A DNA stretch of 61,595 bases, the filler included, from Candidatus Omnitrophota bacterium (GTDB lineage Bacteria; Omnitrophota; Gorgyraeia; Zapsychrales; JBDRMG01): NCBI GenBank assembly GCA_043812495.1. It is 5 parts of 5 records of this genome, joined end to end, with 100 filler letters (N's around TTAATTAATTAA, not from the genome) between each part and the next. Parts side by side here need not be neighbours in the genome. Positions count along the whole stretch, not along the records: positions 32,516 to 48,757 come from JBDRMG010000054.1; 4 more parts are not named here. The stretch is one strand, 5' to 3'. Below, in pieces: positions 36,001 to 42,000 of the stretch. A program made the position numbers. Each line of letters starts with the position of its first letter. Position 1 is the first letter of the stretch.

Positions 36001-39000
36001 GATAAGGTCAGGATAAAAAGGTTTGTCCTTAAGCTGAATGTAGTGTTGTTCCGCTAGCTCGCGAGAGACGCGAACCATGCGCGCGGCCACGATTTCCAGT
36101 TTTGTTTCAGAGAGACGAGTCAAAATATTTCCGGTTAAAGATTTCGCAAGCCCGTCAGGCTTGATGAGAATTAATGTTTGTTTGTTCATTTTTTGATCAA
36201 CTCCGTCAGCCGCTCCAAGTCTTCCGGGGAATAGTATTCAATGATAATCTTCCCATTTTTCTTTTTATGATCGATGCGGACCTTTGTGCCCAATGTTCGC
36301 TGAAGGTCTTCTTCTGTGGCGCGCACATAAGGATCTTTCGCTTGAGCTGTTTTACGTGTCTTTGCTGTTGTGCCCAGCTCTCGTTTGATACTGTTTTCCA
36401 GCTCGCGGACAGATAATCCTTTTTTTATTGTTTTGTCAAAAAAACTTTTTTGTTTTTGAGGATTGTCCAGGCTCAACAATGATCGCGCATGGCCCATGGA
36501 AATAATGTTGCTGGAAATGCTTTGCTGAATTTCCAATGGCAACTTGAGCAACCGGAGAATATTGGTAATCGTTGTCCGGTCTTTCCCAACTGATTGTGCT
36601 ACAACATCTTGCGTATATTGAAATTCGTTAATCAGCCGTTTGTAGGCATTGGCTTCTTCAATCGCATTCAATTCCTCTCGTTGAATATTCTCAACCAGGG
36701 CAAGTACCAATGCCTCTTGATCTGTGGCAGACTTAATAATGACCGGCATATCGTCCATGCCCAGTTCTCGCGCAGCTCTCAATCTTCTTTCGCCTGCGAT
36801 AATTTCAAAACCATCGTCTCTTTTTCTCACTAAGATTGGCTGAAGAACGCCCTTCTCCTTGATCGATGCAATCAAATCTTCGAGCTTCTTCGGATCATAA
36901 TCTTGACGAGGCTGAAGCGAGCTGTCCTTGATTTGCGCTGTCTTTAAATACATGACGCCTTCGGATTTTTCTTGATCCGGAATAAGTGCGGCCAAACCTT
37001 TGCCTAGTGCTTTGCCTTCCATTTTATCCTCCAGATTCCATAACAGTCATATTTTCGGAATTTTCTTTTGACAACTCCGCCGATTCTGATTCTTCAACAT
37101 TTATTGTTTCTTTGGATTCAATATATTGCCCGAGGAATTCCCTTGCAAATTCATCGTATTTCTTTGATCCAATAGAACTTCTATCATAAATAGTAATAGG
37201 CTTCCCAAAGCTGGGCGCTTCGCTTAATTTAACATTTCGAGGAATGATTGTTTTATAAACCTTGTCTCTAAAATATTTTTTTATCTCATTAATGACTTCA
37301 TTTGTCAAATTGGTTCTGAAATCAGCCATAGTCAATAGAACGCCTTCTATCTCAAGAGAAGAATTTAGGTTATTTTTTATAAGATTAATAGTCTTAATGA
37401 GTTGCGAAACTCCTTCAAGTGCATAAAACTCACATTGGATAGGAATAATAATAGAATCGCTTGCAACAAAGGAATTCAGCGTAAGAAGACTTAATGAAGG
37501 CGGGGAGTCAATAAAAATATAATCATATTGGTCGCGAATATTGTCCAATGATTTTTTCAGGCGACTTTCTCTTGACAGGGCGCCAACGAGCTCTATCTCG
37601 GCTCCTGTCAAGTTTATATTACATGGGGCTATGTCTAATCCTTGAATTTCAGTTTGGACAATAATTTCATTTATATTAATTTGGTCAATAAGAACTTCGT
37701 AAATTGATTTTTTTATTGTATTTTTGTTGACTCCAACACCGCTTGTTGCATTTCCTTGAGGATCGATATCAACCAACAGTATTTTCTTTCCAAGAATAGC
37801 CAAGTTCGATGACAAATTAACCGCTGTGGTTGTTTTTCCTGTCCCTCCTTTTTGATTACAGATGGAAACTATTCTGCTCATTGACTATAGGTAATGTTTC
37901 ACGTGGAACATTGGTTTTAGTTATTTAATCCTATTTTATTTGATTAATTCAAATAAATCAAGATTTTTCCTGATTTAATGAAATAATGACCTTGGCCTGC
38001 TTGGCCCCTTCCATTCCAAATAAACCCTTTTGCTCTTCACAAACCACTTTTACGGAGACTTTGTCTCTTGTGGTTTTTAATACGCTTAAACCTTTTTGAA
38101 TAGCCTCTTCGACGGTGCTTCCTTCTGACTCAACTCTTGTTTGTCTTTGCTTGGCCATTATTTCATCACCGTTATTTTGGACATTTTTATTTGCGTGGCA
38201 ATTGAGAATAAATAAAATGTCGTAAAATATAGTGCTAATCCACTGGAAAATTTATAAAATATCATTCCTATAAATAATGGCAAAAAGACCTGCATCATGC
38301 GTTGCTGAGCCGCTTGATTAGGATCTGTAACAACCATATTCTTTGACGTTAGTTTTTGCTGTATAAACATAAGTGCCATTATTATTATAGGCAAAATATT
38401 AAAATATTCAACATTTCCTATTGGAAATTTAAAAGGCAGCTTAAAAAGATGGTCTGGCCTTGATAGGTCTGTGATCCACAAAAAGTTTGCCCCCTTGAGA
38501 CTCACATTTCTCCACATGGCTTGATATACGGAAATAAAGATGGGCATTTGTAGAATCATCGGCAAGCACCCGCCGAGAGGATTGACGCCGTGCTCTTTAT
38601 AAAGAACCATCATTTCCTTGTTTAGTCTTTGTGGATTATTCTTGTATTGTTCGCGCAGTTTTGCCATTTCCGGCTGAATGAGTTGCATTTTCTTCATTGA
38701 TTTCATAGAACTCAATGTCAAAGGATATAGAGCTCCGTTCACAAGAAGTCCGATCAAGATAACACAAACACCCCAATTTGGAATGAAGCCGTGCACGAAA
38801 TTCATGGCTCTCACAACCGACTTCCCGATAAAATCAAGAGCTGAAAACTTGCTAAAAACAAATATTTCTTCAAACCCTTTATTATAGCTTTTTAGTCGAT
38901 TAGTATCTTGCGGACCCACATAGGAGATGAGCCTGAATATCGCTTTTTCTTTTGGGTGAAGGTCAATTTTCTGTCCCTGACTCATGATATTTATGCTTTT

Positions 39001-42000
39001 TTCTCCGGTGACAAAAGTAGTGAGACCGGTTGTTGTGTATTCTGGCTTTATCACTATACAAAAATAGCGATCCCTGAAGCCCACCCAATCAACAAATCCC
39101 TGTCTTTGCAAGTTATCCTTTGGTGAAAACTTATACGCATTTCCTTTTCTCTCGATCATATGGTTGATGGAGTAGGAGTATTCAAACAAATTATAATCAC
39201 GCGGCGAATCTAGCTTTCCGTCTAATTCGCTTGTATCGAGAGAGAAATTTATCAAAGAGAATTCCTTTGAAATCGTCTGGTTTGAAATATTCTCGATAAC
39301 TATTTCGGTCTTGATTGTATCGTCATTGCTTGAGATGTCGTATGTTTTTTGAATTGCAACTTCGTTATCCCTAAATTCATAAGCGGCGATTTCGTTATCC
39401 GCATCCTTTAAATCGAAGTCAAGAGAGCTGTATCCTACAATATTAAACAATCCTTTGACCGGCATTACAAGGGAATGCTGGTTGATTTCAATGGATTTAA
39501 TGGATCCTCCGATATTTGTTAAATATATCTTAACCTCTTTGTTTTCAATTGTTTGCACATCTTCCGAAATTGTTTTCTCTTCTAATTTTTCCCTGATTTT
39601 GTCCGGTGTTGCAAAATTTGGTTGTATAGATTGTTCGGAATCTTTCCGAACTAAATAATCCTCTTTAACAGAATAGACCGGCCCGGATTTCTTCGCTGGA
39701 AAATTAAACGCTATTAATACTAATAGTGTTAATGTTATGGCTATTAATGTTTTTTGTTCCATAGTCTATTTTACCGGATCGTATCCTCCCTTAGAAAAAG
39801 GAGAGCAACGTGCGATTCGCCATAGGGATTTTAAGGAGCCCCTCAGAGGGCCATGCTGATGGAGTGCGTCTATGGCATAGTCGGAGCACGAGGGAGCAAA
39901 CCGGCAGGAGGGTGAGAAAATGCTGCGGCTGACTTTTTGATAAAGCCGAATTAAACAAGTCATGAGGTTGGTCATCGTCAATTCTTTGATTATGTCGTAA
40001 AGGCCTTAGATGGTAACGAGCCGCTTACGGCCTTTTGCGCGTCGTCTCTTTAAGACATCGCGTCCGGAAGAAGTTTTCGTTTTTCGACGGAAACCATGAC
40101 GTTTTTTGCCCTTGAGGATCGTCGGTGTTTTTAAATGTTTCTTCATGGCTGGTCAATTATAGCATAGGGTCTTTTGAAGTCAAGTCTTTTCGTTTTTGAA
40201 GACGTTGGAAATTCATCCTTCGGGCCTGTTGTGACAAAAAATAAGAAACAAAAATTATTTCATTGAAAAATAGAAAAGGACTGTTATAATGCCTGGCGAA
40301 GAGAGTGGGTTTATTTTTGTTCTTTTGGTGAAAAGGAATAAAATGATTTCTGTTCTCGTCGGAAAAAATGCAATCGCTCGACGCCGATTCTGATTCTTGT
40401 TTGGGATTATGCCGTTTCGCTGGTCGGGCGAACCATTGCACGAAGCCTATTTTTGGACGCGAGCCTCCTAATTTTTCGCTATTGGCCAAAATACATTCTG
40501 TAATGCTTGACTATTGGATAAATAAAGAGGGCAAAGACAACACCTTAGGATAATTACATATCTAATTGATATATATGTGTTTAGCTGATGTGGATAAGTT
40601 GTGGATTCTGTTAATCGCGCCCCCTAAAACACCTTAACTGTCTCTTAATTTATTAATTTCTATGGATCTTATAGCGGCCTGGAAAGACATTCAAAGCTCC
40701 TTGCGGGAAAAAGTCGGGGTAACAACATACGAAACCTGGTTTTCGTCTCTTAGCGCCAAGGAAAAGAATCCTTCGACGCTTATTATCGGCGCGCCTGACG
40801 AGTTTTTTAAAAATTGGATAATCGAACATTACGGCCGAGTCATCAAGGAATCCTTCGACGGAATTTCTTCAAAAAACATCACAATTGAATTTGAAGTAAA
40901 TCCTCAAATATTAAAGAAGGGCACGCAAAGTCGGTTGACGCAACTCGAGAAAGGGTTTCAAACCCCGGATCCTCAACAAGCCAGTTTAAATCCGCGTTTT
41001 CATTTTGATAGCTTTGTAATCGGATCGTCCAATCGCTTTGCCTATGCGGCTTGCTTGGCTGTGGCTGAATCCCCGGCCAAGGCCTATAACCCCCTTTTTA
41101 TCTATGGTGGGGTGGGCTTGGGTAAAACACACCTCATGCAGGCCATTACCCATAAGATCAAAGAGATTAACCCAAAATCCAAGCATTGCTATATGACATC
41201 CGAGCGCTTTACCAATGAGCTGATCGATGCCATACGCCATCGTGCGACAGCTAGTTTTCGCCAAAAATATCGAAATATGGACGTTCTTTTAATTGACGAC
41301 ATTCATTTTATTGCCGGCAAAGAATCAACTCAAGAAGAGTTCTTTCATACCTTTAATACCCTGCACGATAACCACAAGCAGATCATTATTGCGTCGGATC
41401 GGCCGCCCAAGGCTATCGCCAACCTCGAAGAAAGGCTGACCTCGCGCTTTACCTGGGGGCTTATCACCGATATCCAGCCTCCGGATTTTGAAACACGCGC
41501 GGCCATTTTAAGAAAAAAGATTGAGCGCGAGCCTGTTCAGGTCCCTGATGATGTTATTGTTTTTATTGCCCAGGAGATTAAAACCAACATCCGCGAGCTG
41601 GAGGGAGCGCTGATCCGGGTTGCGGCCTATTCGCTTTTGGAGGAAAAAACCATTACTTTGGACATGGCCAAGCTCGTTTTAAAGGATATGGTCATGGAAA
41701 CCTCAAAAATTATCAGCATTGATATGATTCAAAAGGCCGTGGCCAACCATTTTAACGTTGCGCTTTCGGATCTCCGATCAAAAAGAAGGAACAAGAATAT
41801 TGTTCTTCCGAGACAAGTCGCTATGTATTTGTCGCGTCAGTTGACTAATTTTTCTTTTCCTGAGATCGGCGGGGCTTTTGGAGGAAAAGACCACACCACG
41901 GTTTTGCATTCCTGCAAGAAAATCGATAAAGAAATGTCCAATGATAAAAAAATGAGAGACCTGCTCGAGCAACTATCAACAGAAATTAAAAGATAACGAG

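Follow-up and report, generated by a model that had tools for sequence, protein, structure and literature searches.

Loss of the signal recognition particle across Omnitrophota, a phylum of tiny uncultured bacteria

Teaching presents the signal recognition particle (SRP), on which nearly all cells depend for delivering their membrane proteins, as universal and essential; the particle serves as a marker of genome completeness and phylogeny and has been pursued as a target for antibiotics. The window analysed here, a stretch of 61,595 nucleotides from an Omnitrophota genome of 1.94 Mb (G000; 66 contigs, 90.5% complete), carries a yidD-yidC pair of membrane protein insertion genes on which a preliminary description had anchored the claim that Ffh, FtsY and SRP RNA are all missing, in this genome and across the phylum. 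At issue is whether SRP is truly gone and, if so, whether anything has taken its place. Both genes are where that description had put them, in the following arrangement:

37958..38158, minus strand: stand-alone Jag_N mini-protein, 66 aa (Pfam Jag_N 3.7e-16), without KH or R3H
38158-39762, minus strand: yidC, membrane protein insertase, 534 aa (Pfam 60KD_IMP 7e-53, plus YidC_periplas)
39766-39981, minus strand: yidD, membrane protein insertion efficiency factor (Pfam YidD 5.4e-27)
40006..40146, minus strand: rpmH (L34), 24 bases from yidD

No rnpA lies in the 24-base gap between rpmH and yidD, and the mini-protein gene joins yidC by a stop/start overlap. Read by eye, such a mini-protein gene follows yidC in 13 of 30 loci, a patchy distribution on which we reject it as a phylum-wide SRP substitute.

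Results

SRP components in this genome. The best SRP54 match in the genome reaches 20.9 bits over 26 positions and belongs to a shikimate kinase. Six SRP-GTPase motif patterns returned nothing genuine, while tblastn with 19 real Ffh, FtsY and FlhF proteins yielded P-loop noise only, as did a filter-free profile of these sequences. Searched over 35,004 six-frame ORFs, filter-free profiles of Ffh, for its N domain and its M domain, gave best E-values of 1.2 and 2, against 1e-33 and 1e-69 for control Ffh proteins that may be among the profile seeds. Both the large and the small SRP RNA are absent from the genome, and the window holds no SRP family match at E<=5. Motif, tblastn, profile and RNA searches therefore all bear out the claimed absence of Ffh, FtsY and SRP RNA here, and no native Ffh, understood as an NG GTPase with an M domain (PF00448, PF02978, TIGR00959), was found in this genome or among the 301 surveyed from the phylum.

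SRP across the phylum. A survey of 301 Omnitrophota genomes, in which the best 10 first-look candidates per genome were scored, yielded SRP54 matches in nine, all accounted for as non-native Ffh or as FlhF, with no FtsY (TIGR00064) among them. Seven of the nine matches are the flagellar paralogue FlhF: each exceeds the TIGR03499 cut-off, the PF02978 M domain is absent from all three tested, and the genes lie beside flhA/flhG. Because FlhF is absent from this genome and from 294 of the 301, it cannot be the SRP substitute. The remaining two matches were rejected as native exception and relic, respectively: a full Ffh (genome G242) is 98-99% identical to two deltaproteobacterial loci and sits in a bin without FtsY, and a 79-aa Ffh fragment (genome G184), which we regard as foreign, ends a 2.8-kb contig with a GC content of 55% vs. 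47-48% and shares 36-44% identity with PVC Ffh, as opposed to 46-53% with others. The SRP RNA families RF00169 and RF01854 were found in 0 of 141 and 0 of 146 Omnitrophota genomes; searches over 40 genomes used stricter filters, and controls missed 1 and 4 of 14. SRP54 is absent from closed genomes too, namely those of two single-contig records titled 'chromosome' (L362 and L499), the first of which also has no large SRP RNA; in these and the other further SRP54 searches every candidate was scored, and two genomes with non-Omnitrophota titles were kept out of the counts. The same tool recovered SRP54 in 84 of 101 and in 2 of 3 PVC metagenome bins taken as positive controls, and conserved genes are abundantly present in the same Omnitrophota genomes (rpsP 60/61, nusB and yidC 61/61 each). 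No relics of SRP genes were seen in the SRP-less Omnitrophota genomes, which span 0.9-3.5 Mb and carry a full membrane-protein load.

Empty gene slots. In the SRP-bearing PVC relative G511 the gene order is ribBA-ribH-nusB-ftsY-ribD-ribE, and a Lentisphaeria-type genome has ribH-nusB-ftsY. Across 30 Omnitrophota nusB loci there is no ftsY: nusB is joined to ribD in 20 and separated from it by a PHP phosphoesterase gene in the other 10, a frequency on which the PHP gene, too, was rejected as a phylum-wide substitute. Similarly, a Chthoniobacterales genome reads ffh-rpsP where murA stands immediately before rpsP in 29 of 30 Omnitrophota loci; this comparison covers the rpsP slot alone, ffh lying elsewhere (pyrC-ffh-smpB) in G511 and a second PVC relative, G512. 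In those two relatives the SRP RNA gene is found directly upstream of dnaX, matching at 145 bits, whereas 28 Omnitrophota dnaX loci, searched with both control loci positive, have none. The corresponding features of the window are:

21833..22047, plus strand: stretch upstream of dnaX, a slot occupied in two PVC relatives by the SRP RNA gene, holding a repeat copy only
22048..23703, plus strand: dnaX (DNA polymerase III gamma/tau), landmark of the empty SRP RNA slot

We take the latter gene to be dnaX, judging by its motifs and by recR beside it. The slot contains a hairpin at about 21894-21950, rejected as an SRP RNA relic: it is a repeat with many partial copies dispersed in the genome and is unmatched upstream of dnaX in relatives. 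Since genes that flank ffh, ftsY and SRP RNA in PVC relatives adjoin one another in Omnitrophota with none of the three between them, we read the three absences as deletions rather than gaps. The loss is confirmed and strengthened relative to the earlier claim, and its phylum-wide reach, as opposed to a gap in one bin, now draws on a larger sample, two single-contig chromosomes, PVC bin controls and three empty slots. We hold it as practically certain that, early in Omnitrophota, deletions at three unlinked loci removed ffh, ftsY and the gene for SRP RNA, leaving FlhF in a few motile lineages as the sole native SRP-family GTPase.

The retained translocation machinery. The preliminary inventory of SecYE, SecDF-YajC, YidC, YidD, Tat and trigger factor stands: SecY, SecE, SecDF, YajC (its gene directly before secDF), TatA/TatC and trigger factor are all present in this genome, where a motif search found no SecG. 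The two SecA paralogs of that inventory do not: what was counted as the second is a frameshifted fragment that takes up the whole 2,051-base contig C55 and shares 65-76% identity with six Patescibacteria-group SecAs vs. 54-59% with 31 Omnitrophota SecAs. These identities mark it as a Patescibacteria-like contaminant, or it may derive from recent transfer; in tetranucleotide composition the contig does not stand apart, since 76% of random pieces are equally distant from the genome. No second native, intact SecA of an accessory SecA2 system was found here, and 70 of the 78 Omnitrophota genomes with SecA have a single match. In the phylum as a whole the SRP parts are absent and SecY, SecA (78/81 genomes) and YidC (61/61, always single copy) are kept.

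Nor is any replacement visible in the parts examined, namely the YidC tail, SecY, uL23, the membrane-protein load and the gene slots. The YidC of this genome ends about 8 residues after its last membrane helix, and in all 30 aligned proteins the tail measures at most about 15 residues and is not lysine-rich; neither the long positively charged C-terminal tail nor the second YidC of an Oxa1/YidC2-type bypass was found. SecA here has insertions near its N-terminus and presumably keeps basic residues at the positions of E. coli K625/R633, as read from the alignment with an assumed numbering offset; its length of 856-1,071 across the phylum brackets the 1,011 aa of an SRP-bearing relative. SecY loops C4/C5 and uL23 are unchanged with respect to SRP-bearing relatives, and no change was seen in uL29, viewed without an SRP-bearing comparator. 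Trigger factor lacks its PPIase domain here (a 308-codon frame); of 59 genomes, 50 have the full-length protein of >=417 codons, and a short trigger factor was accordingly rejected as a phylum-wide substitute. By crude gene calling against a single comparator, 166 of 1,509 proteins (11%) have at least three predicted helices, vs. 54 of 671 (8%) in 0.99 Mb of SRP-bearing G511, and 22 orthologue pairs reveal no shift in helix number, position or hydrophobicity (p 0.10-0.93), a weak test with that one comparator. Many multi-pass membrane proteins are thus still made with ordinary SecYE, SecDF-YajC, a single SecA, a tail-less YidC, YidD and an ordinary ribosomal exit site.

Discussion

We propose, with a probability of roughly 0.55, that Omnitrophota have no dedicated substitute for SRP and rely on ribosomes that dock directly on SecYEG/YidC, SecA serving as a backup. 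While making membrane proteins, ribosomes would arrive at the membrane without help and attach either to SecY, by way of its basic cytoplasmic loops, or to SecYEG-YidC; SecA, sharing the uL23 site with SRP, would capture and deliver harder substrates; and membrane-bound mRNA would hold later ribosomes in place. Such SRP-free docking could be tolerable in cells about 0.2 micrometre wide in which translation is probably slow. With assumed radii and diffusion constants, 47-68% of the cytoplasm lies within 25 nm of the membrane vs. 11% for E. coli, and mean diffusion times are 0.004-0.03 s vs. 0.2-0.6 s. Life without SRP may then be tolerable because half to two thirds of the cytoplasm is within one ribosome width of the membrane; against this reading, diffusion takes less than 1 s even in E. 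coli, so that SRP's job would be recognition and shielding more than transport.

Parts of earlier studies bear on this proposal from both sides. E. coli can live with ffh deleted thanks to translation-slowing suppressors, of which none lies in a translocation gene (PMC7844537); SecA binds the uL23 site of SRP and competes with it (PMC6692507) and backs up RodZ targeting (PMC9192764); and membrane-bound mRNA permits SRP-free insertion (bioRxiv 2022.11.21.517368). Counting against it, raised SecA was judged no major factor in the survival of E. coli without SRP (PMC7844537), and for most membrane proteins the encounter with SecA follows SRP-dependent targeting (PMC9192764). Omnitrophota cells are mostly about 0.2 micrometre in size (Seymour et al. 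2023, PMC10066038). SKK-01, a large-celled member of Omnitrophota, may tell against a small-cell explanation, and the phylum has been called 'hyperactive' from isotope uptake, hardly a pointer to slow translation. Pelagibacter, Mycoplasma and Borrelia keep SRP. Small size is not sufficient for SRP loss and probably not necessary either, since Kiritimatiellia-like genomes of 2.7-3.7 Mb are also without SRP54; cultured Kiritimatiellia are micrometre-sized cocci.

Of the alternatives to direct docking, the one that survives best, although we consider it unlikely, is that a non-homologous protein or RNA targeting factor, or an Mba1/Mdm38-like membrane ribosome receptor, replaced SRP before its loss. 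That the loss is old and clean over the whole range of genome sizes, that a probable second loss in the superphylum hints at a shared predisposition, and that mitochondria evolved such receptors on losing SRP (parts of PMC8321541) would all fit. No candidate, however, emerged from any slot at the few loci screened: the PHP and Jag_N genes are too sporadic, no Get3/ArsA-type loop or soluble Met-rich protein is conspicuous, and neither the S10-spc-alpha nor the secE region here contains an unknown gene among those listed.

Rather improbable, in turn, is that SecA alone became a dedicated co-translational targeting factor by means of its N-terminal/NBD1 insertions, with a shortened trigger factor giving it earlier access, a scheme that overlaps with direct docking and differs from it in degree only. 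The near-universal retention of SecA, the insertions and the missing PPIase domain in this genome, the ribosome site common to SecA and SRP (PMC6692507) and the delay that trigger factor imposes on SecA (PMC9192764; both sources in part) speak for it. Against it stand the lack of a second SecA, a SecA length that the SRP-bearing relative matches and the full-length trigger factor of most genomes.

That YidC replaces SRP through a positively charged ribosome-binding tail, as in Oxa1 and Streptococcus mutans YidC2, gains from the ubiquity of YidC and the S. mutans precedent (bioRxiv 2022.11.21.517368, in part); it is largely refuted by the alignment of short, single-copy, lysine-poor tails and is very improbable, ribosome binding via the YidC C1 coiled coil alone being possible. 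An artefact of incomplete bins or excessive divergence is a negligible prospect and already refuted to a high degree: every genome is a metagenome bin, the main survey scored ten candidates per genome and the RNA filters were strict, but conserved genes are recovered in the same genomes, the distant paralogue FlhF is detected at about 150 bits, exhaustive scoring and the single-contig chromosomes agree, the slots are closed on single contigs, and an independent PF02978 count, in a passage of Seymour et al. 2023 (PMC10066038), found only one genome.

The loss sets Omnitrophota beside systems already described. In Leptospira, Dehalococcoides and SAR86, Ffh, FtsY and SRP RNA are missing and Sec is kept (Fouts et al. 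2016, PMC4758666), the same three-part loss as in Omnitrophota; those are genera or a single lineage, whereas here it is a whole phylum. Thin cells were proposed there as the reason for the loss, and Leptospira's extra low-complexity membrane gene beside the Sec genes has no visible counterpart in this genome. E. coli SRP-null suppressors (passages of PMC7844537) likewise reveal no new targeting factor and point to a longer time window, but they are laboratory mutants with a severe growth defect, FtsY kept and mutations in IF2, IF3 and S3. Mitochondrial Oxa1/Mba1 and S. mutans YidC2 (parts of PMC8321541, bioRxiv 2022.11.21.517368) also insert proteins SRP-free via the YidC family, though they work only with extra receptors or an extended basic tail at the C-terminus, and Omnitrophota YidC is tail-less.

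The absence of the Ffh M-domain marker is already in print as an uninterpreted statistic: in the relevant passages of Seymour et al. 2023 (PMC10066038), PF02978.14 is, for the phylum, 'present in only one genome'; it was dropped from the completeness markers, and completeness comes out at only 92% for V. archaeovorus, whose genome is closed. Those passages give the accession alone, with nothing on FtsY, RNA, gene order or mechanism; the words SRP, Ffh and FtsY do not occur in them, and ffh/ftsY terms number 0 in the eight supplements. We found no paper joining Omnitrophota with the signal recognition particle, and none that connects the loss of ffh and ftsY with Omnitroph*/Patescibacteria; subscription papers or bioRxiv supplements may state either already.

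Omnitrophota, tiny uncultured bacteria with SRP genes cleanly deleted throughout a phylum, are not a unique case. The preliminary description called SRP otherwise universal, a wording that cannot be kept: Leptospira and Dehalococcoides were known to lack it, as was SAR86 (PMC4758666, in part), and Patescibacteria and probably Kiritimatiellia are also without it. A phylum with capable metabolism, all three SRP parts gone and no visible compensation suggests that SecYEG, YidC and SecA can suffice in nature and not just in ailing laboratory strains.

In side observations, SRP54 was not found in 200 of 201 Patescibacteria, in 17 of 101 Verrucomicrobiota, or in G301, the third, possibly incomplete genome of a small PVC phylum. 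All three that were checked among the 17 Verrucomicrobiota genomes belong to Kiritimatiellia, a class with cultured members, making a second SRP loss in the same superphylum probable. Judging by the Patescibacteria and Verrucomicrobiota results, a sizeable part of bacterial diversity would seem to live without SRP. It is a doubtful extension that Omnitrophota and Kiritimatiellia insert their multi-pass membrane proteins, giant ones of dozens of helices included, by an SRP-independent pathway not yet described, which has a targeting factor or ribosome receptor of its own; were it true, SRP loss would, counting Patescibacteria, recur at the scale of phyla and be more than a curiosity, and the factor could be tracked down in cultured Kiritimatiellia. 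Should the loss hold in closed genomes from cultured members of that class, the question of how cells live SRP-free becomes directly testable and the small-cell explanation gains a counter-test.

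Absence of the signal recognition particle from the genome

The finding being an absence, it was checked in the whole genome (G000; 1.94 Mb, 66 contigs, 90.5% complete), across the phylum, at gene slots and against controls. In the genome, the best SRP54 match (20.9 bits, 26 positions) is shikimate kinase and not Ffh or FtsY; tblastn with 19 Ffh, FtsY and FlhF proteins gave noise only, as did filter-free profiles, one built from these proteins and one for each of the Ffh N and M domains, against 35,004 six-frame frames, and neither SRP RNA model matched. Together, these searches uphold a preliminary description in which the genome was said to encode no Ffh, FtsY or SRP RNA. 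The insertase pair to which that description anchored the absence is likewise confirmed in the origin region of the window, flanked by rpmH and a Jag_N gene:

37958-38158, stand-alone Jag_N protein of 66 residues without RNA-binding domains
38158-39762, minus strand, yidC
39766-39981, minus strand, yidD

The Jag_N mini-protein is patchy, following yidC in 13 of 30 loci. YidC is single-copy and extends at most ~15 residues beyond its last helix in 30/30 proteins, which excludes an Oxa1/YidC2-type solution. No rnpA lies between rpmH and yidD (39982-40005), and the RnpA family was found in none of five genomes of the order, yet G000 does have a diverged RNase P RNA at C29:14709-15082 (L561; 74.7 bits, below cut-off).

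Phylum-wide loss and closed gene slots

At E<=1e-8, with the best 10 candidates scored per genome, SRP54 matched in 9 of 301 Omnitrophota genomes, none of the matches being FtsY. Seven are the third SRP GTPase, FlhF, above its curated cut-off and adjoining flhG and mostly flhA, and one is a foreign 79-residue fragment sitting terminally on a 2.8-kb contig. The full Ffh in G242 was rejected as native: it is 98-99% identical to two delta proteobacterium-labelled loci and 71-87% identical to many Desulfomonilaceae-type loci, and the bin also holds no FtsY; it is a binning contaminant. SRP54 is also absent from ten further Omnitrophota-labelled genomes (possibly overlapping the first sample) in which all candidates were scored, two of them records titled 'chromosome'. 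The small SRP RNA (RF00169) was found in 0 of 141 Omnitrophota genomes (controls 13/14) and the large one (RF01854) in 0 of 146, an overlapping sample (controls 10/14). Comparison genes were recovered from the same kind of genomes (rpsP 60/61, nusB 61/61, yidC 61/61), and the same SRP54 search matched 84 of 101 genomes in the Verrucomicrobiota control, the phylum to which a Chthoniobacterales genome belongs; 83 of the 84 gave exactly two matches, corresponding to Ffh and FtsY.

Two genomes of a three-genome phylum labelled 'PVC group', G511 and G512, whose SecY is 56-60% identical to that of G000, possess Ffh, FtsY and large SRP RNA, the RNA gene lying immediately upstream of dnaX. The G511 order ribBA-ribH-nusB-ftsY-ribD-ribE recurs in Omnitrophota without ftsY: in the best 30 of 61 matches, nusB adjoins ribD in 20 loci and a PHP phosphoesterase gene, patchy at 10/30, intervenes in the others, as it does in G000. 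No SRP RNA was found at 28 Omnitrophota dnaX loci, and both control loci match. In 29 of 30 Omnitrophota loci (of 60 matches) murA immediately precedes rpsP-trmD-rplS, the corresponding slot of the Chthoniobacterales genome being ffh-rpsP; this argument is weaker, because ffh sits elsewhere in G511 and G512 (pyrC-ffh-smpB). Three unlinked SRP genes are therefore missing by deletion, their neighbours being intact on single contigs, and this deletion occurred early in Omnitrophota. The 301-genome search, the RNA searches and the closed slots bear out the earlier proposal of a phylum-wide loss over a gap of this bin, and we place the probability of SRP loss in Omnitrophota at about 97%. The rpsP-trmD-rplS loci (L105-L134) also lack rimM and the KH-domain gene, and rpsP of G000 is relocated (trpE-rpsP-yajC-secDF).

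SecA, substrates and candidate replacements

The same description's 'two SecA paralogs' did not survive: the second SecA is frameshifted, fills the 2,051-base contig C55 (C55:1-2051, L103) and shares 65-76% identity with six Patescibacteria-group SecAs vs. 54-59% with 31 Omnitrophota SecAs. C55, which does not differ in composition from the rest of G000, is probably a Patescibacteria contaminant. One SecA match occurs in 70 of 78 Omnitrophota genomes with SecA; in the other seven relatives the extra matches are embedded in frames of 2,531-39,033 codons. These SecA DEAD-like domains in giant frames (7/81 genomes: G055:C13, G064:C11, G080:C5, G071:C25, G092:C40, G030:C59, G032:C47) raise the possibility that giant proteins bring along an export motor of their own.

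The membrane-protein load is kept, with at least three predicted helices in 166 of 1,509 crudely called G000 proteins and in 54 of 671 from SRP-bearing G511 (0.99 Mb). A weak test of 22 orthologue pairs showed no change in how many helices there are, where they lie or how hydrophobic they are. SecY loops C4 and C5, uL23 and uL29 appear ordinary, SecY and uL23 agreeing with those of SRP-bearing relatives. Trigger factor of G000 (C16:25342-26265, L207) has ~300 residues and no PPIase domain; of 59 genomes, 50 have the full-length protein and nine have frames below 380 codons. The search for a replacement, which did not extend to every unknown conserved family, yielded no conspicuous Get3-type ATPase loop and no conspicuous soluble Met-rich protein.

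SRP54-negative genomes in other phyla

In the phylum of G304 (Patescibacteria group), SRP54 matched at E<=1e-15 in 1 of 201 genomes; the matching locus is short and appears to hold part of an FtsY. At E<=1e-50, a threshold below which diverged copies may fall, 17 of 101 Verrucomicrobiota control genomes lack a match (G525, G529, G533, G536, G539, G560, G563, G569, G575, G590, G596, G605, G608, G611, G612, G614, G617; listed with locus L581:2970-5286) and only one has a single match, a pattern that incompleteness cannot produce. Three of the 17 were placed, and in all three the nearest named relatives of housekeeping proteins are Kiritimatiellia, with Lentisphaerae labels too for GyrB (60-64%); one carries aroE-rpsP-trmD-rplS without ffh. 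These Kiritimatiellia-like genomes probably represent a second SRP-less PVC lineage. Kiritimatiellia have cultured members.

Proposed mechanism and earlier knowledge

As the most likely mechanism, held with moderate confidence, we infer that ribosomes making membrane proteins would dock straight onto SecYEG/YidC with SecA as backup, and that later ribosomes would be kept in place by membrane-bound mRNA. E. coli tolerates ffh deletion via translation-slowing suppressors, none in translocation genes (PMC7844537); SecA and SRP share the uL23 site on the ribosome (PMC6692507), SecA alone can target RodZ (PMC9192764), and SRP-free insertion is possible with membrane-bound mRNA (bioRxiv 2022.11.21.517368). 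Most Omnitrophota measure ~0.2 micrometre (PMC10066038), and with assumed radii 47-68% of their cytoplasm is no more than 25 nm away from the membrane vs. 11% in E. coli, where SRP holds the ribosome for ~750 ms, or 12-13 residues (PMC9499511). Against this mechanism counts the minor SecA role in E. coli SRP suppressors (PMC7844537). So do the large-celled Omnitrophota SKK-01, Omnitrophota labelled 'hyperactive' and the Kiritimatiellia-like genomes without SRP54. Some small cells, moreover, keep SRP.

SRP-less bacteria are already known: Leptospira and Dehalococcoides lack the particle, as SAR86 apparently does, and thin cells have been proposed to explain this (PMC4758666). The Omnitrophota loss is real and of the same kind, on an unusual scale. 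Seymour et al. 2023 found PF02978.14, the Ffh M domain, in only one Omnitrophota genome and dropped it as a marker, and the accessible portions of their text and eight supplements yielded none of the words SRP, Ffh or FtsY (PMC10066038). No stated SRP loss for Omnitrophota or Patescibacteria was found in the open-access literature, PMC7203096 being covered by less than half, and the accessible parts of PMC8321541, PMC12826062, PMC11606122, PMC13261788, PMC11915505 and PMC7024585 hold nothing on this point.

The window also contains two structured RNAs:

1598-1750, 6S RNA, 57.4 bits
25371-25580, group I intron, 80.6 bits

Pattern search alone found no EngA/Der or Fmt motifs in G000, and we take TIGR03594 to be EngA/Der. 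Seymour et al. place TIGR03594 among systematically missing Omnitrophota markers (PMC10066038). A dispersed hairpin repeat has one copy at ~21894-21950 of the window and many partial copies in the genome.
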